Origin: a virus
Virus record (IMG/VR): IMGVR_UViG_3300043446_003702
Location: 84,329-148,328 of that record
DNA length: 64,000 nucleotides
Strand: one strand, 5' to 3'
Both the position numbers and the translations under genes were made by a program. Positions 12,763 to 45,918 of this stretch are shown piece after piece; the stretch's first letter is position 1; every line of letters begins with the position of its first letter. The notes beneath the pieces were generated by a model. The model did not search any database and was not told the origin of the DNA. It saw only the letters and a list, made by a program, of their open reading frames with translations.

Positions 12763-12795
12763 TTGACAATTGTTGTAAATGTGCTACAATAAGTA
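12763..12795 (+). promoter_or_regulatory. Sigma70-type promoter overlapped by a late-type AATAAGTA, upstream of gp55
   Basis: TTGACA 12763-12768, 16-nt spacer, TGC-TACAAT ending at 12790; AATAAGTA 12788-12795. A divergent TAAATA at 12725-12730 on the minus strand serves the baseplate operon. Confidence 0.65.
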
Positions 12796-12817
12796 CATAT
12801 CTGGAGAACCCCTGCCG

Positions 12818-13714
12818 ATGACTTTAATCGCAAAACCCGCACCCAAGGTCAACTACCTTAACAACCGTGACATCTTGAAGGAAATACATCTCAGCAAAAA
12901 CACCTACTGTGCATTTAGAGATCCTGTGACTGATCATCAGTTTGACATGATCCTACCCAGTGTGAGCAAAATCAATCAAAAGACCATTGCCGAAGCACGC
13001 CGCAATCGTGCTGACCGTCACAAACGTGAAACAGGTGTAGTGATTGACCCTAAAAAAATACCCAATACCGAAGTGGTTTTTCGTATCATGACCTGGGAAC
13101 ACATACCCCGAGCGCCCAAGAAAGTGCCTAAAACTGCACCCAAAAAGAAACGGATTGAGGACATCTTGGACCTTGATGATGTTACGGAAGACCCCTTGGC
13201 AGACTTGATTGACGATGTTGTGCTGGATCCCACACACATGCGAGTGAACTTTCCTCCGTTCTATCACTATCGTGTGGACGAAGACAAGAATCCTGTGCTG
13301 GTGGGCAAGAGCCACTGGCGGGGTGACTTAGACACCGGCGAATTCTGCAAGGACCACGGCAACATGACACGCAAGTTGGCCATGATGTTTTTGAAACTGT
13401 GCGAACGCTATGCCACTAGATCCAACTGGAGAGGCTACACCTACAATGAAGAAATGCGCGGACAAGCCCTGTTACAACTCAGTCAAATCGGACTGCAATT
13501 CGACGAATCAAAATCGCAGAATCCTTTTGCGTATTACACTGCTGCTATCACCAATAGTTTTACTCGCATCTTGAACATTGAAAAGAAAAATCAAAACATT
13601 CGTGATGACATTTTGGAAATGAACGGGCTCAATCCATCTTGGACACGTCAGAACTCTGGTAAAGCCAGCATGGAAGCCATGAGTGGTCCAGTTGTGACAA
13701 CCTATGAAGAATGA
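12818..13714 (+). CDS. gp55: Late transcription sigma factor gp55-like
   Basis: NYLNNRDIL...LCERYATRSNWRGYTYNEEMRGQALLQL...FDESKSQNPFAYYT motif; upstream of gp47/gp46 as in T4. ATG 12818 follows a GGAGA SD. Confidence 0.85.
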   Translation: MTLIAKPAPKVNYLNNRDILKEIHLSKNTYCAFRDPVTDHQFDMILPSVSKINQKTIAEARRNRADRHKRETGVVIDPKKIPNTEVVFRIMTWEHIPRAPKKVPKTAPKKKRIEDILDLDDVTEDPLADLIDDVVLDPTHMRVNFPPFYHYRVDEDKNPVLVGKSHWRGDLDTGEFCKDHGNMTRKLAMMFLKLCERYATRSNWRGYTYNEEMRGQALLQLSQIGLQFDESKSQNPFAYYTAAITNSFTRILNIEKKNQNIRDDILEMNGLNPSWTRQNSGKASMEAMSGPVVTTYEE

Positions 13715-14601
13715 GTGGCACTGTTCCCATTGTGTACAATGCCGGGGCATACGGCACCTATGTTGAATGGTGTTTGACCACACTGTGTTCTAATCAAACC
13801 ATAATTACACCATTCAATGCCAATGGCAACAGCCATGGATTCACCGGCAACTTCCTGTCAGGGCTGCAAGGTTGGCAACAGTACAAGGTCAATCGACCCC
13901 GGCACCAATTTGTCAGGCTTCACCCCAAAAATCTGGCCTCAGAATCTCTGTCTGCCAATTTGACTGAAATATTACAGTCGGCGCCGGGCATGGTTTATCT
14001 GTATCCTGACCATGATCACATGCTGTTGGTGCTGAACAACTATTTGTCAAAGTGCCATGATGACTGGTGGCTTAAAAACTTTGCCGAGGACATTGATCAG
14101 TCAAAAATTTATTCAAACTGGCAAGTTGGCAACAAGAGCATTTCAGAAATTCCTTTGTGGGTGCGCAGAGAATTTTTGAGTTTTTATCTCATGCCAGCCT
14201 GGCATGATCAAATTGAGTGGTATCATTTAGATACCTGGATGCATCCACGCTCACACAACATACTGATCAAAGATTTGCTGTTTGATTTTGAGCGTGTCAT
14301 GCGCCAATTACAACAGGCATTTGGTTTTAAGTTCGCAAGGCCAATTCAAGATTTGCTGCCCTATCATGAAAAAAACCTAGCATTGCAAGTGCATCAAACA
14401 CAAGATCAGCTGTGTCAAAACATTGTTGACTCTGTGGTGCATGGCATTGATTTTGATTGGAGCAATCAACCACTGCCCTTGGCCAGCGAGGCCTATGTTC
14501 AGTGGCAACTGAGAAATTTAGGTTATGAAATTCGATGCCATGAACTTGACAAGTTCCCCACTGATAGTGTACACTTGAAGGAACTACTCTATACCATATG
14601 A
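13711..14601 (+). CDS. Hypothetical protein, possible P-loop/sulfotransferase-like fold
   Basis: 296 aa with ATGA coupling on both sides; N-terminal IVYNAGAYGTYVEW loop. The function is speculative. Confidence 0.4.
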   Translation: MSGTVPIVYNAGAYGTYVEWCLTTLCSNQTIITPFNANGNSHGFTGNFLSGLQGWQQYKVNRPRHQFVRLHPKNLASESLSANLTEILQSAPGMVYLYPDHDHMLLVLNNYLSKCHDDWWLKNFAEDIDQSKIYSNWQVGNKSISEIPLWVRREFLSFYLMPAWHDQIEWYHLDTWMHPRSHNILIKDLLFDFERVMRQLQQAFGFKFARPIQDLLPYHEKNLALQVHQTQDQLCQNIVDSVVHGIDFDWSNQPLPLASEAYVQWQLRNLGYEIRCHELDKFPTDSVHLKELLYTI

Positions 14602-15611
14602 ATCTATTTCGCAAAGCCGCAGTCTTCACAGACATACATTTTGGATTGAAGTCCAACAGCCAAACACACAATGATGATTGTCTAGCATTTGTCAAATGGG
14701 CCACTGCCAAGGCCCGGGAACAAGGTTGCGAAACATGTTTGTTCCTGGGTGACTGGCACAACAATCGTGCCAGCTTAAATATTGTTACCCTGAACTTTAG
14801 TTTACAGGCCTTGGAGCATATGAATGACAATTTTGATCAGGTATATTTTATTCCTGGCAATCACGATCTTTATTATCGAGACAAGCGCGATATACAAAGT
14901 GTGGAGTGGGCCAAACACCTACCGAACGTTGTTATATGTAATGATTGGTTCAGCAGTGGTGACGTTGTTATTGCCCCTTGGTTGTGTGGCGACGATCACA
15001 AGCGTATTCCAAAACTAACTGGTCGGTACATGTTTGGGCATTTTGAATTGCCCGGTTACTACATGAATGCCATGGTGCAGATGCCAGATCATGGCACCAT
15101 ACAGCGTTCAGACTTCCAGGCCTTTGATCATGTGTTCACCGGACACTTTCACAAACGTCAAACTGCCAACAACATCACCTACATTGGCAACTGCTTTCCA
15201 CACAACTATGCCGACGCTGGAGATGACGAACGTGGCATGATGATCTTGGAATGGGGGCAGGAGCCCACGTATCATGCCTGGCCTGATCAGCCCCGATATC
15301 GTGTGTATGGCCTGGCCAATCTCATTGACAATGCTGCCACACTGCTGGCTCCCAAAATGCATGTGCGTGTGAACCTAGACATTGAAATCTCATACGAAGA
15401 AGCCAACTTTATCAAAGAAACATTTATCCGAGATTATGGTCTGCGTGAAATGGCGTTGATTCCTAACAAAACTTCCGGTGTAGATGTAGACCTTGCGCCT
15501 GGCAATGTCAAATTTGAGTCAGTGGATCAAATTGTCACAGACCAACTCACCAACATTGAATCAGAATTCTATGACAACAAACTGTTATTGCAGATATATC
15601 AAAATTTATGA
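14598..15611 (+). CDS. gp47: Recombination endonuclease gp47 (Mre11/SbcD-like)
   Basis: Metallophosphoesterase motifs DIHFG, LGDW, GNHD, GHF and GHFH. Confidence 0.92.
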   Translation: MNLFRKAAVFTDIHFGLKSNSQTHNDDCLAFVKWATAKAREQGCETCLFLGDWHNNRASLNIVTLNFSLQALEHMNDNFDQVYFIPGNHDLYYRDKRDIQSVEWAKHLPNVVICNDWFSSGDVVIAPWLCGDDHKRIPKLTGRYMFGHFELPGYYMNAMVQMPDHGTIQRSDFQAFDHVFTGHFHKRQTANNITYIGNCFPHNYADAGDDERGMMILEWGQEPTYHAWPDQPRYRVYGLANLIDNAATLLAPKMHVRVNLDIEISYEEANFIKETFIRDYGLREMALIPNKTSGVDVDLAPGNVKFESVDQIVTDQLTNIESEFYDNKLLLQIYQNL

Positions 15612-17371
15612 TTCAAATTAAAAATCTTTCTGTTCGAAATTTCATGAGTGTGGGCAATGCCACACAGGGCATTGACTTTGACCGTCAAGACCTTACCTTG
15701 GTCTTGGGTGAGAATCTAGACCTAGGCGGTGATGGATCACGCAACGGCACAGGCAAGACCACAATCATCAACGCCTTGAGTTATGCTCTATATGGGCAAG
15801 CATTGTCAAACATTCGCAAAGACAATCTTGTAAACAAAACCAACAGCAAAGGCATGTTGGTAAGTTTGGATTTCAGTGTCAATGGTAAAAACTACAGAAT
15901 TGAACGTGGACGCAAGCCCAATGTGTTGCGCTTCTATGTGGACAGTGAAGAACAAAGTGCCAGTGATGATGCACAAGGTGACAGCCGAGAAACACAGGAT
16001 GCCATAGAACGTGTCATGGGCATGAGTCATGACATGTTTCAACACGTTGTGGCCTTGAACACCTACACCTTGCCGTTTCTCAGTTTGAAAGCCAATGAAC
16101 AACGCACCATAATTGAACAGTTGCTGGGTATCACACTGCTGAGTGAACGTGCCGATCGTATCAAAGAACTCAACAAGGTTACCAAGGATGCCATCACCAC
16201 AGAAGAATTTAGAATACGTGCTGTGCAAGAAGCCAACCGGCGCATTGAAGAACAGATAGAAAGTCTGCGTAAGCGACAACGACTTTGGACAGCCAAGCGT
16301 GATGAAGATGTTGAAAAACTTGGTCAAGCCATTGCGGACTTAGAACACATTGACATCGACGCCGAAGTGCAGGCGCACAGAGATTTAGAAACGTTCCATG
16401 TCAAACGCAAAGCCATAGATGAAGCCAATCATTGGCTAAGACAGATTGCTGCTGATGATGTCAAACAAAACAAATTGATAGAAAAACTAAAAAAAGAAAT
16501 TGAAGCACTAGACAATCATCAGTGCTATGCCTGTGGACAAGATTTACACGACACCAAGCAAGATGAGATACGTGCCAGCAAGCAGGTCACGCTACAGGAA
16601 ACTGCACTTCAACTATTGGCCAATGACACGCAACGCCAGGAACATCAAAACACATTGAGTGAACTAGGCGAGTTAGGCACAGCCCCCACTGTGTTTTACG
16701 ACAGCCTCGAACAGGCACTGAATCATCGCAACACTGTGGAAACACTGCGCAAGGACTTGACCAGCAGAGCCAATGACACTGATCCCTACGCTGAACAGAT
16801 TGCAGACATGCAAAATCAAGCTCTGCAGTCAGTGGCATATGATGAATTAAACCGTCTCACAAGACTGCAGGACCATCAAGAGTTCTTGCTCAAACTACTC
16901 ACAAGCAAAGATTCGTTTGTACGCAAAAAGATCATTGATCAGAATTTGAGTTACCTCAATGCCAGACTCACACACTATTTGGATCGCATTGGATTGCCAC
17001 ATACTGTGAAGTTCCAAAATGACTTGAGTGTAAGCATTGAAGAACTGGGCCGTGAACTGGACTTTGATAACCTCAGTCGTGGCGAACGCAATCGACTGAT
17101 ACTGAGCATGTCATGGGCATTCCGTGATGTATGGGAAAGTCTGTACAGCCCTATCAATATACTATTCATTGATGAAATGATTGACTCAGGCTTGGACACA
17201 CAGGGTGTGGAAAATGCCTTGGCCTTGCTGAAGAAGATGACTCGTGAACGCAACAAATCAATTTGGCTTGTGAGTCACCGAGACGAACTCACCAGTCGTG
17301 TGGAAAACATACTGAAGGTTGTCAAAGAAAACGGTTTTACCAGTTATAGCACAGATGTTGATATAAAATGA
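15608..17371 (+). CDS. gp46: Recombination ATPase gp46 (Rad50/SbcC-like)
   Basis: Walker A NGTGKTT, coiled coil with a CYAC zinc hook, signature LSRGE and Walker B ILFIDE. Confidence 0.93.
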   Translation: MIQIKNLSVRNFMSVGNATQGIDFDRQDLTLVLGENLDLGGDGSRNGTGKTTIINALSYALYGQALSNIRKDNLVNKTNSKGMLVSLDFSVNGKNYRIERGRKPNVLRFYVDSEEQSASDDAQGDSRETQDAIERVMGMSHDMFQHVVALNTYTLPFLSLKANEQRTIIEQLLGITLLSERADRIKELNKVTKDAITTEEFRIRAVQEANRRIEEQIESLRKRQRLWTAKRDEDVEKLGQAIADLEHIDIDAEVQAHRDLETFHVKRKAIDEANHWLRQIAADDVKQNKLIEKLKKEIEALDNHQCYACGQDLHDTKQDEIRASKQVTLQETALQLLANDTQRQEHQNTLSELGELGTAPTVFYDSLEQALNHRNTVETLRKDLTSRANDTDPYAEQIADMQNQALQSVAYDELNRLTRLQDHQEFLLKLLTSKDSFVRKKIIDQNLSYLNARLTHYLDRIGLPHTVKFQNDLSVSIEELGRELDFDNLSRGERNRLILSMSWAFRDVWESLYSPINILFIDEMIDSGLDTQGVENALALLKKMTRERNKSIWLVSHRDELTSRVENILKVVKENGFTSYSTDVDIK

Positions 17372-17778
17372 ATTGCGTTGAGATTGCCAGTTTGACCAAT
17401 TTGGAATATGTCAAAATCAGCATTAATCAACAGATTGTGCTAGAAACACACAATTGCAAAACATTGAACTGTAAGATAGTTACATTGCCAGCAACAGTCA
17501 ATGTAGAATTTCGACCATTAAAAATTCGACCCATAGTAAGATATAACAATTTTATGTTGAATTATTGGTTGGCTGGCATACAGTTATTTGATCACCAACT
17601 TGAATTTACCATTACAGAAACGTTTTTTCAAGACTACAAGAATAAAAATATACAAGGACGGATTGACTCTCTCACTGAGTCTCAAAAAAAACTAGATCAC
17701 TATTGGGATAAATATGTTGGCATTGACAATTTACACCCAGAAATAGTTCAAAAAATCAAAAGTCTTATCAGCAAATGA
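17368..17778 (+). CDS. Hypothetical protein (first gene of the AT-rich accessory cassette)
   Basis: 136 aa, translationally coupled to gp46 and to the next gene. Confidence 0.6.
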   Translation: MNCVEIASLTNLEYVKISINQQIVLETHNCKTLNCKIVTLPATVNVEFRPLKIRPIVRYNNFMLNYWLAGIQLFDHQLEFTITETFFQDYKNKNIQGRIDSLTESQKKLDHYWDKYVGIDNLHPEIVQKIKSLISK

Positions 17779-19307
17779 AAAATGTTGTATTTGTCGCCTT
17801 GCCCAAAATAGAAATAACATATCCTTCGGGAGCTATTGCTATTTTGTCAAGTGTGGCCAAAGCAAACCATTATGAATCTGTTGTCTATGATTATAATTTA
17901 GATTTACATACATTGTTAACTGCCACAGAGTGGAATGAACTAGAACTGTGGAATACATTTGCGACATCTAGTATTTCTACAGAACTTGAACACAAAATAC
18001 ATCAAATTTTTATAACAAATTTAAAAAAATGTATAAACCCACAGACAGAATACGTTTGTTTTTGTGTGTTCAGCTATTTTAGCAATCAGATTGCTCTTAA
18101 AGTTCTTAATTGGTACAAACACTTCAGCAACATACCTTCAATAGTAGGTGGCGCAGGAATATCAACTGATGCTAGTGCCACTAATAAAGAAATTTTTGGT
18201 AATCTATTGGTGCGTAACCAATTAGCCACTTATGTTGTTTTTGGCGAAGGCGAACTGTCATTTGACAGTATACTAAAAAAACAATTTGACTTTCCAGGAA
18301 TTAATGTGAACAATCCTCAACAGATTGAAGACCTCAGTGTATTACCTATTCCCACCTATGAGTACTTTGATATGGCAAGATATCAAAATCAAAAAATATT
18401 GATCACAGGCAGCCGGGGTTGTGTAAGAAACTGCACCTTTTGTGACATTGAGTTGACTTGGCCAAAATTTAGATATCGAAAAGCTGAACACATAGTTGAG
18501 GAAATAAAACAACATTTTTACGAGTACGGCATTACTGAATTTGAATTTACCGACAGCTTGATCAATGGCAGTATGAGCAATTTCAATCGTTTTAATGAAT
18601 TGTTGTACGAAGCAAAACAAAAAGATCCTGCATTGGAAACAATCAAATATCAAGGACAATTTATCTGTAGACCCAGTGGATCTAACCAAGACAAGTCTTA
18701 TGAACTCATGCACCTTGCAGGCTGTAATATGTTGATCACTGGCATTGAAAGTTTTAGTGAGAATGTTCGCAATCACATGCGTAAAAAATTCAACAACAGC
18801 GATATTGATTACCACTTTGAACAATGCGCACGTTGGGGGATCCCCAACGTGCTTTTGATGATTGTTGGATATCCAACTGAAACTGAACAAGATCACCTAG
18901 ACAATATCAATGCCTTAAAAAAATACAAACCATTTGTGGACATGGGGACAATTTTTATGGTGCGTTGGGGATTGACCATGCATCTTTACGAGCATACTCC
19001 CATCATGAACATGGTTAATGAATTAGGTATTAATTTCAGCAACGATATAAAATTTGACAGCGTTTACAGTTGGACGTCGGACAAAAATCCAACAAACACC
19101 TTGCAAGAACGCATACGTCGAAGATTAGAAATACACGAACTGTGTGTGGAATTGGGTTACCCTATGCCAAGAGTGTTGGAAGAATTACTGGTGTTGGTTA
19201 ATTTGGCGGAAAAAAGTCGGGAACTAAAGAAAAAAACAATTTTTACACTAGAATTAGAGACACCATCTAGTGTGCCTGCTAATTTTAAAACAAACGCATA
19301 TACCTAA
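17775..19307 (+). CDS. Radical SAM protein with an N-terminal B12-binding-like domain (class B-like)
   Basis: SRGCVRNCTFC (CxxxCxxC), IVGGAG, VVFGEGE, FTDSLING, GIESFSE and MIVGYPTET. Confidence 0.85.
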   Translation: MKNVVFVALPKIEITYPSGAIAILSSVAKANHYESVVYDYNLDLHTLLTATEWNELELWNTFATSSISTELEHKIHQIFITNLKKCINPQTEYVCFCVFSYFSNQIALKVLNWYKHFSNIPSIVGGAGISTDASATNKEIFGNLLVRNQLATYVVFGEGELSFDSILKKQFDFPGINVNNPQQIEDLSVLPIPTYEYFDMARYQNQKILITGSRGCVRNCTFCDIELTWPKFRYRKAEHIVEEIKQHFYEYGITEFEFTDSLINGSMSNFNRFNELLYEAKQKDPALETIKYQGQFICRPSGSNQDKSYELMHLAGCNMLITGIESFSENVRNHMRKKFNNSDIDYHFEQCARWGIPNVLLMIVGYPTETEQDHLDNINALKKYKPFVDMGTIFMVRWGLTMHLYEHTPIMNMVNELGINFSNDIKFDSVYSWTSDKNPTNTLQERIRRRLEIHELCVELGYPMPRVLEELLVLVNLAEKSRELKKKTIFTLELETPSSVPANFKTNAYT

Positions 19308-20792
19308 ATGGACGCAGTTATTGTCAATATTCCTAGAATGGCTCCTAGTAGGCCCAGTGCGGGCACTGCCTTGATCAAAAGTTTGTTGAATAATATCAAT
19401 GTATCAAATAAATTACTGGATATAAACATTGATTTCTTTAATTGTTTTGCTGAGCAATACGGCGCAGAACAGTTTCAAGAACTTGATAGATACTTGTACA
19501 ACGACGACATTGTGTTGTCTGCTGCCACAAATCAAAGTTATCAAAATTTTTTGGAGTATTGGATCAAAAACATTGTTGAGCTAGACCCCAAATGGATTTT
19601 GATTAGTATTTTTACATGGCAATGTCAAAACTTTGCTCGAGACTTTATTAGTAAACTGAGAACATATACCACTGCCAAGATTGTGATAGGCGGGCAAGGC
19701 ATGATCAAAAGTGAGAACACCAGCTTCAATGAAAATCCTTATTTTGCCAAAGAACTTTTGACCGCTGGTGTAATAGATTATTACATACAAGGTGAAGCAG
19801 AAAAAGCGTTGCCCGAATTGTTACGTGGTAATGATACTTTCCCTGGCATCAACTCAGATATATTTGCCGAACGCAGTGAAATGAGTACAGTCCCTGCATA
19901 CGATTTTTCTGACCATGATATTACTGCATACCACAGTGGCTATTCAGATGGACAATTGCCACTAGAAAGCAGCCGTGGTTGCGTAAGATCTTGTTCGTTC
20001 TGTGATTGGCCTGTGTATGCCGGGGGCTTCCGCAGCAAGCCTGGAGATCAGTTGTTTGAAGAATGTATAGGCTATTATTACCAACATGGCACAACCAACT
20101 ATTATTTCAACGACAGTTTGATCAATGGCAATTTGACAGACTTTAGACAATTCAATCATAGATTAGTTGAGTATTACAAACAAAACAACTTGCCAGATCG
20201 CACAATCAAATACAGTGGCTGTTACATTGTTCGCAAGCCCAATCAATGGCGCGAGGAAGATTGGGAGTTGATTGGTCGTGCAGGGGCGGATATATTGTTA
20301 ATTGGGGTGGAAACAGGATCAGACCGTGTGCGTAAAGAAATGAAAAAAGGTTTCAACGCTGATGATTTAGACTTTACTGTGCAGATGGCCAGTCGTTACA
20401 AAGTAAAATTGTATTTTTTAATGATTGTGGGCTGGCCTAGTGAAACTAGAGAAGAGTTTGATGAAACCTTGGATTTATTGCGAAGATATCAACGCTATGT
20501 TGCTGACGGAACATTAATGGGCATAAACTTTGGTACTAGTCTTACCATAGGCGAAGGCACACCTATCTATAAAAATCCGGAAAAATTCAATGTTGTGGGA
20601 GTAAATGGTAAACGGCCCAACGATGTGTTTTGGATGCATCAACACAACCCTGCCCTCACGTACAAAGAACGTGTGCTACGCAGAATTGAGGCACAGGAAC
20701 TGGCCATCAGCTTGGGCTACACATTCTGGAAAGGTGATGATCAGTTGAACTTTATTCGCAACAAATACGAAAGAATCTTGAATGAAAATTGA
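19308..20792 (+). CDS. Radical SAM protein with a B12-binding-like domain, paralog of the upstream gene
   Basis: SRGCVRSCSFC, IVIGGQG, IQGEAE, FNDSLING, GVETGSD and MIVGWPSET. Confidence 0.85.
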   Translation: MDAVIVNIPRMAPSRPSAGTALIKSLLNNINVSNKLLDINIDFFNCFAEQYGAEQFQELDRYLYNDDIVLSAATNQSYQNFLEYWIKNIVELDPKWILISIFTWQCQNFARDFISKLRTYTTAKIVIGGQGMIKSENTSFNENPYFAKELLTAGVIDYYIQGEAEKALPELLRGNDTFPGINSDIFAERSEMSTVPAYDFSDHDITAYHSGYSDGQLPLESSRGCVRSCSFCDWPVYAGGFRSKPGDQLFEECIGYYYQHGTTNYYFNDSLINGNLTDFRQFNHRLVEYYKQNNLPDRTIKYSGCYIVRKPNQWREEDWELIGRAGADILLIGVETGSDRVRKEMKKGFNADDLDFTVQMASRYKVKLYFLMIVGWPSETREEFDETLDLLRRYQRYVADGTLMGINFGTSLTIGEGTPIYKNPEKFNVVGVNGKRPNDVFWMHQHNPALTYKERVLRRIEAQELAISLGYTFWKGDDQLNFIRNKYERILNEN

Positions 20793-21339
20793 AATTTTGT
20801 TGCAGTGCGAAACACGACTGGGTGCACCAATGATACGTTGTACCATAGACGAAGGTGCGCCATTTTTTGACGGTCCAGCACAGGAACACATCTCAGCCAC
20901 ACTAGGTGTAGCACCAGGATTTCATGAACTGGTGATTAGTCATTATAACAAACAAGATCATGATCATGTGTTGGACAATAATGGGTGCATCATCATAGAC
21001 AAGCATGTTGAAATCCTAGCTATTAGTATAGACAACCTTGAGTTCAGCATGGATGAACTAAGGCAAGCACATTTTTATCCTGTGTACCAATCTGTTTATT
21101 ATCAACAGCAGTTGGACCAAGGCCATAAGTTGCCTCCCAGTATTTCTCCAAATTTGTACTTGGGACACAATGGTATTTGGAAGTTGAACTTTCACACACC
21201 GTTTGTGGAATATATTATACAAAAACGTAAAAATTTGGCCATGAACTTGGACAACACTATTTTTCAAAGTGATACTGAGTTGTTACGCCAAACCAAAGAC
21301 TGGATACAGGCACAACCGGACATTGTATGGAACATATAG
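20782..21339 (+). CDS. Hypothetical protein, paralog of 22342-22827
   Basis: Shared motifs: HYNK..D...DKHVEILAISID..LYLGHNGIWKLNF here versus HYGK...DRSCELDSIEVD..LFFGKNGTWRIAF. Confidence 0.65.
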   Translation: MKIEILLQCETRLGAPMIRCTIDEGAPFFDGPAQEHISATLGVAPGFHELVISHYNKQDHDHVLDNNGCIIIDKHVEILAISIDNLEFSMDELRQAHFYPVYQSVYYQQQLDQGHKLPPSISPNLYLGHNGIWKLNFHTPFVEYIIQKRKNLAMNLDNTIFQSDTELLRQTKDWIQAQPDIVWNI

Positions 21340-22364
21340 GCAGACAGTTTGCCATGGCCATGGCCTTAGCACAAAATCCCCATGCTGATTTTTGGGCAGT
21401 GAGATCTGCCATCAACGGATATTACATTGGCAGCAGGGTGGATCAGGATCCTGTTGTAGAAACATTGTTGAATACAACTATTCGCATAGAAGATGTGGTT
21501 CGTGCTGCCAACAGCAATGATCAACTTATACAATTAGAGCAGCGGTTTGCCAGCTGGATATTGAGTCACCAAACCAATACTATCACAGGACTGGAACAAT
21601 ACGAACCTGACTACAGTGAAGGCAGTACACAGGCCTTTGACAGTTTTTACTTTAGACACAGACACCGACGCTTTCGTTGCTTTGTAGGCGAATACTTTTA
21701 TCACCCAAAAACTTGGATTAGCACCGGTGCTGATTGGAGTTTTATCACTGACAGAGATCCGCTTGGTTCTGGAGATGCACTGGTATTAAGTGTGCCATTT
21801 TGTGACACAGTTGGCGTAGTTGATAATTACGCTCAACTCATGCAGTGGTGCCAAGCAATGAATATTCCAGTGCTGTTGGACTTGTGCTATTGGCCTATTA
21901 GTCATGACTTACATGTTGATTTGTGTTACAATTGCATAGACACTGTGGCGTTTAGTCTCAGCAAAGCCTGGCCTGTGGGCACTGCCCGAATAGGCATGCG
22001 ATACACCCGATCAGACACATTTGATGGACAGAAACTGCATCACAGCATGGGATATAACAACAATGTAGGTGCCATGATAGGCAACGTATTGTTAGATAAT
22101 TTTGCTCCAGACTGGATTTATACCACTCGCCAAAGTAAATACAAAACTGTATGTAAAGTACTGAACTTACAGCCTACCCATAGTGTGAACTTTGGCATTG
22201 GTGACTCTTCTTGGGATCGCTACAATCGTAGAGAATTGTTAAAATCTTATCAATTAGACTTTGATCCCAATTTGTTCGTAAATCGTATTTGTGTGAACCG
22301 AGTGTATCAACACTGGGATTTGTTTAGGACTTTTTGTCGCCATGAACTTGACATTGAAATTTAA
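21327..22364 (+). CDS. PLP-dependent fold-type-I enzyme (aminotransferase/decarboxylase-like)
   Basis: GSTQAF, VLLDLCY (PLP Asp) and FSLSKAWP..RIG (Schiff-base Lys). Confidence 0.7.
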   Translation: MEHIGRQFAMAMALAQNPHADFWAVRSAINGYYIGSRVDQDPVVETLLNTTIRIEDVVRAANSNDQLIQLEQRFASWILSHQTNTITGLEQYEPDYSEGSTQAFDSFYFRHRHRRFRCFVGEYFYHPKTWISTGADWSFITDRDPLGSGDALVLSVPFCDTVGVVDNYAQLMQWCQAMNIPVLLDLCYWPISHDLHVDLCYNCIDTVAFSLSKAWPVGTARIGMRYTRSDTFDGQKLHHSMGYNNNVGAMIGNVLLDNFAPDWIYTTRQSKYKTVCKVLNLQPTHSVNFGIGDSSWDRYNRRELLKSYQLDFDPNLFVNRICVNRVYQHWDLFRTFCRHELDIEI

Positions 22365-22827
22365 AAATATACAACCCTGCAACGGTCTACCCATGATTCA
22401 CATTGTGATCAACGATGCCTTGGTATTTGAAAACTCTGTGCGTCCGGAGATCAACATACAATGCCATCCTGTAGACAACAAGATCAACTTGAGCATCCAG
22501 CACTACGGCAAAGACCCTACAACAGATACCGTGGTTGAGAATGGTGTGATTGTGCAAGACCGCAGTTGTGAACTTGATAGCATTGAAGTAGACGGCTATG
22601 ACCTACAAGAGTTGAAATGGTTGAGTACATATCACTGTGATGATGGCGCAGTTTTAGACAAGTGTCTGTTCTTTGGTAAAAATGGTACATGGCGGATTGC
22701 ATTTGAATTGCCAGTATTGCAGTGGATACTGCGAACCAGGCACAACATCAATGGCAATGATCCCAACTGGTCTGAAGATTATGAAAGTTATGTGAGAGCA
22801 TGCAGACTGCTGAACAAATCAATCTAA
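22342..22827 (+). CDS. Hypothetical protein, paralog of 20782-21339
   Basis: Shares the paralog motifs above; coupled to its neighbours. Confidence 0.6.
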   Translation: MNLTLKFKNIQPCNGLPMIHIVINDALVFENSVRPEINIQCHPVDNKINLSIQHYGKDPTTDTVVENGVIVQDRSCELDSIEVDGYDLQELKWLSTYHCDDGAVLDKCLFFGKNGTWRIAFELPVLQWILRTRHNINGNDPNWSEDYESYVRACRLLNKSI

Positions 22828-23861
22828 TACAACAAATCAGTTGGGCACTGGCCAAGGCCAGTGCCGAAGACTGCTTGGACACGCCTGGCGAGTTTGTGTG
22901 GGCCTATCCACAGAACTCGCAATTCTGGGAAGTACGAGCACGTAGCCATAGCATATTCAGTAGTGGCAATGCTATCAAAGACCAAATCGTTATCGATTTT
23001 GTCAACCATTTGAGTTTGAGTGAGCACCTTAGAGACTGCTGGATTGTCAACAAGTTTCAAGAAGCATTTCCTGCATGGATTGCTGCTGGCACTCGATACC
23101 GATTACATAACTTGGATCAGTTCCGGTATGTGGGCTTTTCACAAGGCACACAGGAATCATTTCTTAACTGGTACATGATGCACAAGGACCAGCGACTGCG
23201 AGTGTTTCGTGGCGACTACTGGTGGCACATGGAGATCTGGCAAAAGGCCGGGTTCAACTGGCGGTACATCGACGATGATTTTGATATCAAACCTGGCGAT
23301 GCTTGTATATGCAGTCTGCCGTTTGCACTCACAGGTCAAGAACATGAACGCTTCAAGTGGTTGGTAGAACAGTGTGACCGCCAAGGTGTGGACCTGTTGG
23401 TGGACTTTATCTACTTGCCCAACAGCAACAATGTTGTGGACATTGACTTGAGTGCAGACTGTATCAAAGAAATAACATTCAGTCTCAGCAAAACATTTCC
23501 TGTGCAAACAGCCAAGATTGCTGTGCGCATGCTAAAACACAAACCCAGCGATCCCATGCAGATGAGCAACGATGAAAACATTTGCAACCGTTTGAGTAGC
23601 GGATTAGCATTGAGTCTAATACAGCAGTTCCCTGTGGACTACATGGTGAACAAATATCTAGATCAACAGACATATTGGTGTGAACGCTTGGGATTACGAC
23701 CCACCGGCGTTGTACATTTTGGACTGGGTGAAAACTATACTGCCACAGGCAGACAGCAAGAATTGAACTATCTAAGCAAATATAACGAGCAACAAAATCG
23801 CTATAATCTGGGCATGCTCTTTGAAAATCAAAATTTCCTGAAAAAACTTCAATTATACTAA
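22800..23861 (+). CDS. PLP-dependent fold-type-I enzyme, paralog of 21327-22364
   Basis: GTQESF, LLVDFIY and FSLSKTFP motifs. Confidence 0.7.
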   Translation: MQTAEQINLIQQISWALAKASAEDCLDTPGEFVWAYPQNSQFWEVRARSHSIFSSGNAIKDQIVIDFVNHLSLSEHLRDCWIVNKFQEAFPAWIAAGTRYRLHNLDQFRYVGFSQGTQESFLNWYMMHKDQRLRVFRGDYWWHMEIWQKAGFNWRYIDDDFDIKPGDACICSLPFALTGQEHERFKWLVEQCDRQGVDLLVDFIYLPNSNNVVDIDLSADCIKEITFSLSKTFPVQTAKIAVRMLKHKPSDPMQMSNDENICNRLSSGLALSLIQQFPVDYMVNKYLDQQTYWCERLGLRPTGVVHFGLGENYTATGRQQELNYLSKYNEQQNRYNLGMLFENQNFLKKLQLY

Positions 23862-23905: not shown

Positions 23906-24334
23906 ATGACATGGTTATATCAAGACACCCCAGTTGAGACTTTACCTGAAGAATGTGTGGGTTTTGTTTATCAAATCACAAATAATCTATCTGGACGCAA
24001 GTACATAGGCAAAAAATTAGCAAAATTCAGTAAGACAACGTACAAGACAGTAAAACAAAAGAACGGCACAAAAAAGCGGAAGAAGATACGAACCAAAGTC
24101 GATTCAGACTGGCGTGAGTACTACGGGTCAAGCCCAGAATTAACCGCAGACGTAATCAAACTAGGCATCGAAAACTTCACCAGAGAGATACTCTTCTATT
24201 GCAAATCAAAGTCTGAATGTAGTTACATTGAGGCACGAGAACAGTTTGCACGTCGAGTATTGGAATCAGCAGATTATTACAACGGCCATATACAAGTACG
24301 TGTACATGGCTCACATATCAAAGACAAAATTTAA
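23906..24334 (+). CDS. Short GIY-YIG endonuclease
   Basis: GFVYQITN..GRKYIGKK...YYGSS...E..EQF...YYN; a catalytic domain with no long DNA-binding tail. Confidence 0.85.
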   Translation: MTWLYQDTPVETLPEECVGFVYQITNNLSGRKYIGKKLAKFSKTTYKTVKQKNGTKKRKKIRTKVDSDWREYYGSSPELTADVIKLGIENFTREILFYCKSKSECSYIEAREQFARRVLESADYYNGHIQVRVHGSHIKDKI

Positions 24335-43700: not shown

Positions 43701-45918
43701 TGTTGGTGGTGATTTAATTGTCAATGGAAATCTTAGTTACAACAACGTAACCAGTTTCAATGTTGAAGATCCAATCATCGGTTTGGGGCGCGGTGCCAAC
43801 AATACACCTTTGGTCAGCAACGATGGCAAAGATCGTGGTGAACAACTTTATTATTATGCAGCCAGCGAAAAATCTGCGTTTGTTGGCTACCAAAATAGCT
43901 CAGGTAACATCATTGCAGCCACAGATGTTAGTATTGCCAATGAAATAGTCACAGTCAACACTTATGGCACATTTGTAGTAGGCACCTTGGCAGGTACAGC
44001 AGTTTCAGTAACTGGTAATGTCACTGGCGGTAATATCAACACTGGGGGTGCAGTGTCAGCCACCGGTAATGTAACAGGTGGCAACATCAACACAGGGGCA
44101 CAAGTAGTGGCCACTGGCAATATAACTGGCAGTAATTTAAATGCTGCTGGATTGAGCCTAAGTTCAAATGTTGTGTCAGCATTCAATGTTACGAGCAATA
44201 TTGCTGGCGGCAATATCAAAACCCCTGGAATAATTTCTGCAGCAGGTAATATCACCGGCAACTACTTCATTGGCAACGGATCACAGCTGACTGGTGTCAT
44301 TGCTACTGGTATTGGTATACTGTCTAGTTTGAGTGTAACTGGCAATATCATCACTGGCAATTTGAGTTCTTTGGGTGCTGTCAGCGCAACCAGCAACATT
44401 GTTGGTGGCAATATCACTACGCCTGGACTGATATCTGCAACTGGCAATGTTACTGGTGGCAATATCATTTCTGTAGCGGTAGTCAGTGCCGCATCAGTGA
44501 GCACAACAGGCAATGTCACTGGAGGTAACCTTGTAACTGCTGGTGCCATAAGCGCCGCTTCAATTTCGGCAAGTGGCAACATCACCGGTGGTAATGTCTT
44601 GGGCGGTGCCAATGTCAATGCCACAACTCATACAGGTACCACAGTGTCAGTAACCGGTAATATCACCGGTGGTAATGTTTTGGGCGGTGCCAATGTCAAT
44701 GCCACAACTCATACAGGTACCACAGTGTCAGTAACCGGTAATATCACCGGTGGTAACATTGTAACTGCTGCTGCTGTGAGTGCTGCTTCGGTGTCGGCAT
44801 CGGGCAATGTCACAGGTGGCAATTTGGTCACTGGTGGAATTATCACAGCCACAGGCAACATTGTATCAGGTTCACTAATTTCAGCAGCGGGCAATGTGTC
44901 AGCCGCAGGCAATGTTTTTGCTCAATATGTTTTTGGTAATCTAGTCGGAAGTATAACTTTATCCAGTTCGGCCAACAGTCAGGTATTGTTTGATCAAAAT
45001 GGTGTCATTGCTGGTGACTCTGGATTGGTATTTGATTATGCAGCCAACGCACTCACAGTAGGCGGAGCCATAGTAACCACAAACGGTGGCGACCTGACTG
45101 TGGCTGGTTCAGCCACAGTTATTGGCAATATCTCAAGCACCATTGGTAATATTGGCGGCGGCAACATCCTGGCTACAACTTTGCTCAGTTCAGGCGGCAA
45201 CATCATAGGTGCCAACATTAACACAGCTGGTCTAATCAGTGCTACCGGTAACATAACTGGTGGTAATATCAGATCAGGCGGGTCGGCCAGCATCAGCGGC
45301 AACGTTATCAGTGGTAACTTGACCACAGGCGGTGTAGTAACAGCAACAGGTAATGTCACAGGTGGCAACATCAACACAGCAGGATTGGCCAGCGTTAGTG
45401 GTAATGTCATAGGTGGTAATTTAAGCACAGCCGGATTGATCACATCCACCGGTAATGTCACAGGTGGCAACATCAACACAGGGGCACAAGTAGTGGCCAC
45501 TGGCAATATAACCGGCGGCAACATACTCACTGCTGGTGTAATCTCGGCCACCGGCAACATCACCGGCGGCAACTTGAGTGGCACCAGCATTGTGGGCACA
45601 TTGACCACAGCGGCTCAAAACAACATCACTTCAGTGGGTACACTGAGCAGTTTGAGTGTAACGGGCAATGTAGATGGTGGCAATCTGCGCACCGCTGGCC
45701 TGATCAGTGTCACCGGCAATGTCACCGGCGGCAATTTGAACGCTGTGGGATTGAGTCTCAGTGGCAACGTGCTCAGCGCAATCAACATGACAGCAAATAT
45801 AACAACCACAGCCAACATCAGTGCCAACAATATCAACGCTACAACCGCGATAAATATCAACAACGCCAGGGTAGCAACCATAGATGACGCGGCTGCATTG
45901 GCAATAGCATTAGGATAA
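40756..45918 (+). CDS. Long fibre protein (1720 aa) with TGNITGGN repeats and chlorovirus glycoprotein-like repeats
   Basis: N-terminal IDIGAAANDGTGEPLRDAFNAVNENFTEIY (T4 gp9/10-like anchor), NYFIGNGSQLTG-type repeats and a C-terminal AAALAIALG. Confidence 0.8.
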   Translation: MAQQIIDIGAAANDGTGEPLRDAFNAVNENFTEIYTAGPVGSNVVISGNTITVTGTNNNLVLRANGIGNIQANSSIMPSIDAVYDIGAPTQRVDTVYAAYFVGNGSGITGITTAGTSIDWGTSNVKIVSSGGNVTVSVGGTSNVAVFGATSSNIRANLAVGNLSTAGQISATSNITGGNITTVGSISATGNVTGNYIFGNGALLTGIITTVANINNGNSNVSILNAGSNVIVSVNGVSNTVVFGPSATTFSGNIVPAANNVSTLGTSTQRFKNIYLSGNTITLGESTLTANADAIVLTNPVGGSFVVQGTSQSDSTAITNGTSRMAIPVANANVQINVGGIANVFVVSSTGIQSAGNIRANSQISAVGNIITDGFFVGTFVGNVTGNISVPGVNTQILYNNFGNAGASAGFRFNSVGNVLTLTGNAQVGNVIATGNVSGGYILGNGALLTGIASSYSNANVAVYLASGTNTSNIITTGNIAGGNLSLTGAFGAGSLSSSGNVTGGNLRTLGIVSSAGNIVTDGYFVGTFAGNITGNLTVPGSNTQIIYNNAGNAGASAGLRFDTAGPNLLTVNGNIQTIGLLASGNVSAAGNILANNVVITGLVSAAGSISATGNVTGDNINTAGQVVATDTIAGGNLLTGGLISSTGSITSAANITGANVITAGSVSAGGDVSLVGNVDGGNIRAVGVVSATGNVTGNNINAVGLSLSGNVISALNSTAAVNTTANITGGNVNATINVNATGDISATGNVTGANLIGTLATATQPNITSVGTLSSLSVTANVNGGNLRTTGSISATGNITGGTINTTLVSATGNVLASVLSASGNVTGGNLNTAGAVVATGNVNTLANVNGVNLAASGLITAVGNISGGNLITAGAISAASVSSSGNITGGNILGGANVNATTHTGTTVSVTGNITGGNLNAAGLSLSSNVVSAVNVSGNIAGSNVTTPGLISATGNITGGNIISVAAISAATVTTTGNAIVGGDLIVNGNLSYNNVTSFNVEDPIIGLGRGANNTPLVSNDGKDRGEQLYYYAASEKSAFVGYQNSSGNIIAATDVSIANEIVTVNTYGTFVVGTLAGTAVSVTGNVTGGNINTGGAVSATGNVTGGNINTGAQVVATGNITGSNLNAAGLSLSSNVVSAFNVTSNIAGGNIKTPGIISAAGNITGNYFIGNGSQLTGVIATGIGILSSLSVTGNIITGNLSSLGAVSATSNIVGGNITTPGLISATGNVTGGNIISVAVVSAASVSTTGNVTGGNLVTAGAISAASISASGNITGGNVLGGANVNATTHTGTTVSVTGNITGGNVLGGANVNATTHTGTTVSVTGNITGGNIVTAAAVSAASVSASGNVTGGNLVTGGIITATGNIVSGSLISAAGNVSAAGNVFAQYVFGNLVGSITLSSSANSQVLFDQNGVIAGDSGLVFDYAANALTVGGAIVTTNGGDLTVAGSATVIGNISSTIGNIGGGNILATTLLSSGGNIIGANINTAGLISATGNITGGNIRSGGSASISGNVISGNLTTGGVVTATGNVTGGNINTAGLASVSGNVIGGNLSTAGLITSTGNVTGGNINTGAQVVATGNITGGNILTAGVISATGNITGGNLSGTSIVGTLTTAAQNNITSVGTLSSLSVTGNVDGGNLRTAGLISVTGNVTGGNLNAVGLSLSGNVLSAINMTANITTTANISANNINATTAININNARVATIDDAAALAIALG
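44581..44756 (+). repeat. 81-bp in-frame tandem duplication within the fibre gene
   Basis: Units start at 44581, 44662 and (partial) 44743, with one mismatch between the full copies. Each encodes ITGGNVLGGANVNATTHTGTTVSVTGN. Confidence 0.9.

Follow-up and report, generated by a model that had tools for sequence, protein, structure and literature searches.

The seven genes described here lie on the plus strand at positions 17368-23861 of a 64-kb window of DNA, which forms the end of a 148-kb IMG/VR virus record (IMGVR_UViG_3300043446_003702; G000 in the following) with an estimated completeness of 43%. They encode, in this order, a small protein ("small"), two radical S-adenosylmethionine (SAM) proteins (RS1 and RS2), a protein termed X, a pyridoxal phosphate (PLP) enzyme that we likewise call PLP, and the paralogs X' and PLP'. 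The setting is that of uncultured giant freshwater T4-like phages, and the closest cultured relatives, as judged by gp46, are jumbo phages, namely PA5oct (50% identity), followed by Phosso and Atu_ph07. An earlier note on this DNA had read the string as a duplicated biosynthetic cassette coupled to the gp55-gp47-gp46 operon. The seven genes, each of which overlaps or abuts the next, were confirmed, and so were the three paralog pairs, whose similarity was far beyond chance (RS1 and RS2, 27% identity over 492 residues, E 2e-71; X and X', 27% identity, E 8e-13; PLP and PLP', 26% identity, E 3e-38). The duplication of a cassette was not borne out, as a survey of about 100 related loci resolved the string into three stacked modules that move separately: PLP-X'-PLP' (module 1, the triad) is the oldest and has a genome-like GC content, RS2-X forms module 2, and small-RS1 (module 3) is the newest and the most AT-rich.

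Layout of the locus

The AT-rich character that had been ascribed to the first half of the string is real. The GC content climbs from 0.32 in small through 0.36 in RS1, 0.40 in RS2 and X, and 0.42 in PLP and X' to 0.45 in PLP', compared to 0.446 for the genome. Purifying selection acts on each of the seven genes, with dN/dS values of 0.05-0.18 relative to L007, a relative of about 92% identity that served as the reference, and the string is tightly coupled in translation. The genes and their neighbors are listed in the table.

Table. Genes from the gp55-like sigma factor to the SegE-like endonuclease (positions within the 64-kb window; aa, amino acids; ORF, open reading frame)
Feature	Position	Strand	Matches and remarks
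gp55-like late sigma factor	12779-13714	+	phrog_12791 (E 6e-77), phrog_234 (E 2e-23); opens the co-directional string
Conserved 296-aa ORF	13711-14601	+	No match in Pfam, PHROG, or NCBIfam
gp47 / SbcD-like nuclease subunit	14598-15611	+	phrog_100 (E 4e-63); Metallophos
gp46 / SbcC-like ATPase subunit	15608-17371	+	phrog_77 (E 2e-102); 50% identity to PA5oct
small, 136 aa	17368-17778	+	GC 0.32; module 3 with RS1
RS1, 510 aa	17775-19307	+	PF04055 (E 3e-15); CxxxCxxC; module 3
RS2, 494 aa	19308-20792	+	PF04055 (E 8e-14); PF02310 (E 4e-5, below cut-off); module 2
X, 185 aa	20782-21339	+	27% identity to X'; module 2, partner of RS2
PLP, 345 aa	21327-22364	+	Predicted model of fold type I; first PLP enzyme of the triad (module 1)
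X', 161 aa	22342-22827	+	CBM60-like beta-sandwich and two C-terminal helices (predicted model); middle gene of the triad
PLP', 353 aa	22800-23861	+	Diverged PLP paralog with apparently intact active site; third gene of the triad
SegE-like GIY-YIG homing endonuclease	23906-24334	+	PF19835 in relatives; homing-endonuclease PHROGs

The proposed coupling to the gp55-gp47-gp46 genes holds with respect to position, as these genes lie upstream on the same strand and are co-directional, and the stop codon of gp46 overlaps the start codon of small (ATGA). A functional coupling was not supported, as the site next to gp46 is an insertion hot spot (see below). Scans for promoters and terminators gave no excess over shuffled sequence. 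ORFs of 297-317 aa precede gp47 in relatives too, part of them detected by phmmer, and we take the slot of the corresponding ORF of this genome to be the alpha-glucosyltransferase (alpha-gt) slot that T4 has between genes 55 and 47.

At the other end, the SegE-like endonuclease terminates the locus in nearly all relatives, and it follows the triad in most loci. The top PHROG of this protein, phrog_447 (E 9e-38), carries the label "NAD synthetase", which looks wrong because it conflicts with the Pfam family SegE_GIY-YIG and with the homing-endonuclease PHROGs. Within the AT-rich RS1 gene, we noticed a hairpin at 18828-18852 with a perfect 11-bp stem, which is centered on GGATCC and followed by TTTTGATGAT. 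This hairpin is not kept in L007 and L008 (about 91% identical), in which synonymous changes disrupt the stem, and it is therefore probably due to chance or specific for the lineage.

Three modules with separate histories

Two sources supplied the surveyed loci, namely metagenome assemblies, in which exact proteins were looked up, and IMG/VR, which was scanned with a pattern; the annotation relied on profiles built in this analysis. The triad was found in 56 loci with 42 different PLP sequences, the most distant of which have 40% identity. Leaving aside the copies of this genome, the three triad genes overlap in each of the remaining 51 loci. It usually lies directly between gp46 and the SegE-like gene, and 23 of the 56 triad loci have no radical SAM gene within about 10 kb. 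RS-X without PLP genes occurs in L011 and L012 in the order gp46, RS, X, a second radical SAM gene, a gene for a protein like short-chain dehydrogenases/reductases (SDR-like), and SegE, with X recognized by hhalign (99.5%). The loci L020-L025 (83% identity) contain RS2-X-PLP-X'-PLP' without small and RS1, and this five-gene form is an intermediate architecture. As small-RS1 is absent from these loci and is the most AT-rich part of the string, it is the latest arrival, and the GC gradient from 0.32 to 0.45 tracks the inferred order of arrival.

The X family permitted us to follow these histories in a second way. When 60 X-family proteins were placed in a maximum-likelihood tree, the X proteins encoded after RS genes formed a single clade (support 96/94) with a long stem, apart from the X' proteins of the triad, and this clade includes the X proteins of L011 and L012, which have no PLP genes. 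The tree and these PLP-less loci together indicate that X at 20782-21339 is the companion of RS2 and not of PLP, in line with the RS2 orthologs (47-93% identity), which are always followed by an X gene. The statement in the earlier note that each PLP gene is preceded by a copy of X is thus correct by position, but the X in front of PLP belongs phylogenetically to RS2. A tandem duplication of an X-PLP unit was rejected on the same two grounds.

The nearest relatives of RS1 are the RS proteins of L042, L043, and L028 (35-38% identity), and there the RS gene is preceded by a gene for an X-family protein (profile comparison with hhalign, 98.9%). Small occupies the slot in which the RS1 subfamily normally has X, and by its sequence this unrelated 136-aa protein appears to have replaced the upstream X partner. 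We also considered that small is a degenerate X, which was rejected because BLASTP and hhalign comparisons to the X profile and to the profile of X proteins encoded before RS genes were all negative. Relatives of small were found solely in L007 and L008 (about 92% identity). Its amino acid identity is 80% and its dN/dS 0.12 in comparison to L007, and this low ratio indicates a constrained gene. An Atlas search with small returned only noise, and its Atlas model (predicted local distance difference test, pLDDT, 0.41) has no confident fold.

A relative with a genome of 354 kb that is 98% complete (G001) contains the triad at 26 kb and an X gene followed by an RS gene at 324-326 kb, about 300 kb apart from each other. 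The latter pair lies directly after a RecA/UvsX-like gene, and X precedes a radical SAM gene of the B12 type (L104, C1:320500-328500). Two further X-like genes were found in this genome. One is a weak, partial match (E 4e-7) that follows an N_Twi_rSAM gene, i.e. a radical SAM gene of the twitch type, next to a gene for a UvdE UV-endonuclease (L105, C1:240000-247000). The other, at about 138 kb, lies downstream of a ClpB-like AAA+ gene, with two ORFs in between (L106, C1:134500-142000); two genes after this X, there is a weakly cytidylyltransferase-like gene. As these sites are dispersed, the modules are best understood as independent insertions between core genes, with the segment between gp46 and SegE being a hot spot, and the neighboring homing endonuclease would fit to this. 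An independent scattering of the genes, which the earlier note had named as an argument against its reading, was partly observed, namely in the triads without RS, in the RS-X pairs without PLP genes, and in the separated units of G001. An obligate coupling of RS and PLP genes was rejected on the basis of the triads that lack a radical SAM gene and the distance between the units in G001.

Two further arrangements were seen in the survey. In L050, L052, L057, and L059-L061 (for example L052:4400-9191), the triad is not located beside gp46 but in the order QueD/PTPS-like gene (149 aa), 394-aa ORF, 234-aa ORF, and PLP-X-PLP', with T4 gp9/10-like baseplate genes downstream; the 394-aa and 234-aa ORFs of this context had no match in the Protein Data Bank (PDB) or NCBIfam. 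In some other relatives (L011:10061-11757, L012:10005-11704, L040, L045, and L046), the slot after RS-X or the triad is taken by a gene for a SPASM/twitch-like radical SAM protein of 300-372 aa, which is another interchangeable module at the gp46-SegE site. In L011 and L012, the SDR-like protein encoded after this radical SAM protein has 194 aa.

The PLP family is restricted to viruses. Searches of 50,697 GenBank phage records with the cassette (megablast) and with PLP (tblastn) gave no match, and only three matches to PLP were obtained in 185,579 species genomes, just one of them with a triad. This triad is encoded on a 183-kb contig (L101, NZ_JBBAKG010000001.1) that is filed as part of a metagenome-assembled genome (MAG) of Haliscomenobacter. 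Its gene order, gp47, gp46, PLP-X-PLP', SegE, and baseplate-side genes, is that of the phages, and the contig looks like a phage contig that was binned into a bacterial MAG.

The enzymes and their X-family partners

Both RS proteins reached the Pfam family Radical_SAM (PF04055) with 57.3 and 52.6 bits at a cut-off of 29.5, and both translations contain the CxxxCxxC motif, with no variation at the cysteines C225, C229, and C232 among 30 sequences. The earlier note had also proposed a B12-binding-like N-terminal domain. In Pfam, the match of RS2 to the B12-binding family PF02310 was below the cut-off (24 versus 32.1 bits) and RS1 had no match, but precomputed matches to this family exist for many RS2 homologs, and other comparisons point in the direction of the proposal. 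The top NCBIfam families of RS1 and RS2 were all radical SAM families with a B12-binding domain (PhpK, the ladderane B12 protein, C-methyltransferases for peptides made on the ribosome and modified after translation (RiPPs), and MJ_1487), with scores 4- to 10-fold under the family cut-offs (76-84 versus 360-600 bits), and the alignments to TIGR04013 and TIGR04072 begin at residues 73-109. In addition, the RS family profile aligned to OxsB (5UL4) over residues 61-353, including the N-terminal domain. As far as such alignments can tell, the N-terminal domain of the RS proteins is homologous to the B12-binding domain, and cobalamin use is only predicted. AprD4 and some other proteins of this architecture are not known to use B12.

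The best solved relative of the RS proteins was PDB entry 9CCB (E 7e-13 with the family profile), which a review of 2026 assigns to QCMT, the B12-dependent enzyme for the C-methylation of a glutamine in methyl-coenzyme M reductase. With class B enzymes such as QCMT, OxsB, TokK, TsrM, and AprD4, RS1 and RS2 share the CxxxCxxC core and the N-terminal domain that aligns with the Rossmann/B12 region of OxsB. They differ from these enzymes in that the RS genes are paired with a gene for an X-family partner, a pairing that we did not find in the searched literature.

For PLP and PLP', there was no match in Pfam (E <= 0.01), PHROG, or NCBIfam, and only some relatives of the PLP family reached PF00155. 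An AlphaFold2 model of PLP, which was based on 62 homologs (pLDDT 94.2, predicted TM-score 0.91), is that of a fold-type I aminotransferase with a large and a small domain. With this model, Foldseek gave at least 500 PDB matches at E <= 0.001, those listed being all fold-type I PLP enzymes, with E values of 1e-10 to kynurenine and histidinol-phosphate (HisC) aminotransferases. In a VIA search, kynurenine aminotransferases, RohP/MppP/Plu4, C-S lyases, CobD, and HisC were tied at Z 21-22 over about 300 residues. Sugar aminotransferases of the DegT/DnrJ/EryC1 type were not among the Foldseek and VIA matches listed, which were all of class I/II type. The PLP profile matched Plu4 (7N79), with the Lys aligned to the lysine region of Plu4.

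In at least 95% of 43 PLP and 42 PLP' sequences, we found conserved Lys213/231 (positions in PLP/PLP'), Asp185/202, Tyr188/205, Ser210 and Ser212/Ser228 and Ser230, Arg225/243, and Arg320/334; PLP also has a conserved Arg221 beside Arg225. From the spacing of these residues, we infer roles as Schiff-base lysine, as aspartate at the pyridine nitrogen, and as phosphate-binding Ser and Arg residues. A loss of catalytic residues, which would have spoken against the enzymatic function assumed in the earlier note, was not found in the PLP enzymes, as Lys and Asp are intact in both copies. About fifteen further positions are fixed differently between PLP and PLP', including R221, which is K239 in PLP', and D160, which is L177. 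In view of the conserved catalytic residues and the differently fixed positions, both proteins look catalytically competent and specialized for different jobs. The likeness to HisC, the threonine-phosphate decarboxylase CobD, kynurenine aminotransferases, and MppP/RohP/Plu4 consists in the fold and in the pattern of Asp-x-x-Tyr, Ser-x-x-Lys, an Arg eight residues after the Lys, and a C-terminal Arg. In contrast to these class I/II enzymes, the identity to which is 10-16%, the alignment reads P-F-C-D-T in PLP in place of the usual N-P-T-G loop, and PLP and PLP' always occur as a diverged pair that flanks an X-family gene.

The PLP family comprises 687 clusters at 50% identity (E <= 1e-3). It contains natural fusions, namely radical SAM-PLP, PhyH-PLP, and PLP-methyltransferase, and shorter, distant homologs of about 300 aa are encoded within clusters of four radical SAM genes. 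We rejected the fusions as a link specifically to RS1 and RS2, as the RS profile does not recognize their radical SAM domains, which are of a type other than B12.

Like small, X and X' had no match in PHROG, Pfam, or NCBIfam, and the fold of X' was approached by modeling. The model (pLDDT 94.1) consists of a beta-sandwich (residues 1-122) and two conserved helices. An exhaustive structural search matched it to the CBM60 module 2XHH with Z 11.2 (rmsd 3.3 A, 107 of 119 residues), followed by the next match at Z 6.7, and the top Foldseek match was the CBM60 module 2XFD (E 7e-4, TM-score 0.62 by target length). CBM60 was also the nearest named cluster in a language-model feature search in the Atlas (score 0.78), which we regard as a lead only. 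In a viral structure library, the matches of X' were solely uncharacterized proteins of uncultured phages. The identity to CBM60 is 10-14%, and PF16841 matched neither X nor X'. The resemblance to the calcium-dependent carbohydrate-binding modules of the CBM60/CBM36 type (2XHH, 2XFD) lies in the beta-sandwich topology. The X family differs from CBM60 in being stand-alone and apparently cytoplasmic, in having two extra conserved C-terminal helices, and in being encoded next to radical SAM and PLP genes, whereas CBM60 modules are fused to glycoside hydrolases. Lys57 and Asp73 are invariant across the X subfamilies.

Possible functions of the system

The reading that we favor, although with low confidence, is that the locus encodes soluble tailoring enzymes that are docked by X-family proteins onto a carbohydrate-bearing acceptor. 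X-family proteins would be dedicated subunits for docking or substrate recognition, and they would bring the radical SAM and PLP enzymes to one common acceptor, such as a glycan or glycoconjugate made by the phage. For the RS enzymes, we envisage a radical C-methylation or a comparable edit; the two PLP enzymes would catalyze different reactions at amine or keto groups, for example a transamination and then a second PLP-dependent step. The position next to gp46 would reflect the insertion hot spot and a co-transcription with early/middle genes without any role in recombination. A glycan as acceptor is supported by the gene context: this genome contains seven N_Twi_rSAM genes (NF033640) above the family cut-off (G000:C1:21373-63355, upstream of the window), five of which are clustered at 54.5-63.4 kb of the record, and an NDP-sugar (nucleoside diphosphate sugar) epimerase/dehydratase gene at 43787-44482 of the record. 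In total, the 148-kb fragment has at least nine radical SAM genes, counting RS1 and RS2, and G001 has eleven N_Twi_rSAM genes. We also count in favor of this reading that natural fusions and the clustered short homologs connect the PLP family with radical SAM enzymes. Precedents for such a combination exist in tailoring of the DesI/DesII and aminoglycoside types, in which a PLP aminotransferase acts together with a radical SAM enzyme, and in class B C-methylases such as GenK. The locus resembles the DesI/DesII type in that PLP and radical SAM enzymes would edit one sugar, and the PLP family itself contains radical SAM-PLP fusions; it differs in that PLP is not visibly of the DegT type, in the lack of NDP-sugar genes in the locus, and in the radical SAM domains of these fusions, which do not belong to the B12 type.

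Several points weigh against this reading. A match of the predicted X' fold to CBM60 does not show sugar binding. PLP finds its closest structural kin among amino-acid enzymes (kynurenine, histidinol-phosphate, and aspartate aminotransferases, CobD, and MppP/RohP/Plu4) and not among DegT-type sugar aminotransferases, and the conserved C-terminal Arg, as far as residue spacing allows such an assignment, is consistent with a substrate that carries an alpha-carboxylate. The radical SAM domains found in the fusions are of another type than RS1 and RS2. Finally, as the triad often occurs alone, RS and PLP enzymes need not share a substrate.

The amino-acid-type kinship would also fit a pathway for a free small molecule, in which the two PLP enzymes convert an amino acid or amino-phosphate by transamination, decarboxylation, or oxidation, the RS enzymes methylate, and X has a regulatory or stabilizing role; the product could be a non-proteinogenic amino acid, a piece of a cofactor, or a molecule for signaling or anti-defense. 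The tied structural neighbors at Z of about 22, all of them amino-acid enzymes, the conserved residue pattern from Asp-x-x-Tyr to the C-terminal Arg, and the QueD/PTPS-like gene with two ORFs directly upstream of the triad in its second context agree with such a pathway. However, it would leave the CBM60-like partner, which recurs beside unrelated enzyme classes, without a role, and among the neighbors of the triad there are no conserved genes for a transporter, a ligase, or other steps of a pathway. We place it on the unlikely side. It is also rather unlikely that the X proteins are themselves the substrates, with each enzyme (RS1-type, RS2-type, twitch radical SAM, or the PLP pair) modifying the adjacent X paralog to yield small beta-sandwich proteins in modified form, or a product that is assembled on these proteins or set free from them. 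This would account for the presence of a separate X paralog, from one of three or four subfamilies, beside every enzyme module, and for the invariant Lys57 and Asp73; moreover, QCMT as the best solved RS relative methylates a protein glutamine, RiPP C-methyltransferases rank high among the NCBIfam families, and a distant cluster contains an Asp/Asn beta-hydroxylase-like gene. Against it stand the compact and confidently predicted 160-aa domain of X' (pLDDT 94), which has no leader/core layout, the fact that PLP enzymes seldom act on protein side chains, and the RS family scores, which are all far under the cut-offs.

DNA as the acceptor was considered in two forms. In T4, a DNA glucosyltransferase gene lies within the 55-47-46 string, and this precedent, together with the co-transcription of the cassette with early/middle DNA-metabolism genes, speaks for a thymidine hypermodification of the M6/ViI type, as had been suggested by analogy in the earlier note. 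In this pathway, an amino acid is attached to 5-hydroxymethyldeoxyuridine (5-hmdU) and then reworked by two enzymes, a radical SAM isomerase and a PLP decarboxylase, and the enzyme superfamilies match those found here by name. The analogy fails at the level of the enzyme classes, as M6 gp51-gp54 and ViI share with the present locus a phage radical SAM and PLP enzyme, but both the radical SAM class and the PLP type differ (PMC8989533). M6 gp53 is similar to spore photoproduct lyase, and M6 gp52/ViI gp226 are reported to have the lysines K36 and K92, with gp226 being modeled on tryptophan synthase beta (PMC8989533), which does not fit to a fold-type I enzyme with Lys213; the RS proteins are B12-domain radical SAM proteins. 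In agreement with the earlier note, which had seen no 5-hmdU kinase, the kinase family HMUDK_hel (PF18723) matched nothing in either the 43% fragment G000 or the 98% complete, triad-carrying G001, in a search that included no positive phage control. The sole ThyA-family gene of G001 encodes a canonical enzyme that passes the thymidylate synthase equivalogs NF002497 (350.8 versus 327 bits) and TIGR03284 (346.5 versus 108 bits), and no ThyA-family gene is present in the 148-kb fragment. Altogether, a hypermodification of this type is very improbable. Another form of DNA modification, in which a sugar or other group already present on a base is tailored and X recognizes a sugar on the DNA, would be in line with the position in the gp55-gp47-gp46 string, the CBM-like fold predicted for X', and the G001 copies of X beside UvsX-like and UvdE genes. 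It is nevertheless improbable, as the surroundings of these copies look more like places of insertion between core genes than like a functional partnership, and no hydroxymethylase turned up; no search was aimed at DNA glycosyltransferases.

Returning to enzymes that are docked onto a carbohydrate-bearing acceptor, a broader form of this reading, which we put forward with a little more reserve, is that X represents a hitherto undescribed, virus-restricted class of CBM60-like partners that is attached to B12-type radical SAM, twitch radical SAM, and new PLP enzymes, and that the whole is a plug-in system for the assembly or editing of a complex glycoconjugate on the virion, on the host envelope, or even on DNA, which no cultured phage is known to make. 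The enzyme superfamilies are already known. New with respect to the searched literature are a PLP family confined to viruses, the invariant PLP-X'-PLP' unit, and the CBM60-like partner that is common to B12-type or twitch radical SAM enzymes and PLP enzymes.

For the biology of these phages, the analysis removes thymidine hypermodification as an attractive but wrong lead, and it indicates that the neighborhood of gp46 is an insertion hot spot beside a homing endonuclease and not a sign of functional coupling. Uncultured lake jumbo phages are rich in radical SAM genes, with nine in the 148-kb fragment and more than eleven in G001, and the locus offers three handles on them: the strictly conserved PLP-X'-PLP' unit can be synthesized and assayed alone, the recurring small partner protein marks the enzymes that belong to the system, and the natural fusions tie the PLP family to radical SAM enzymes.

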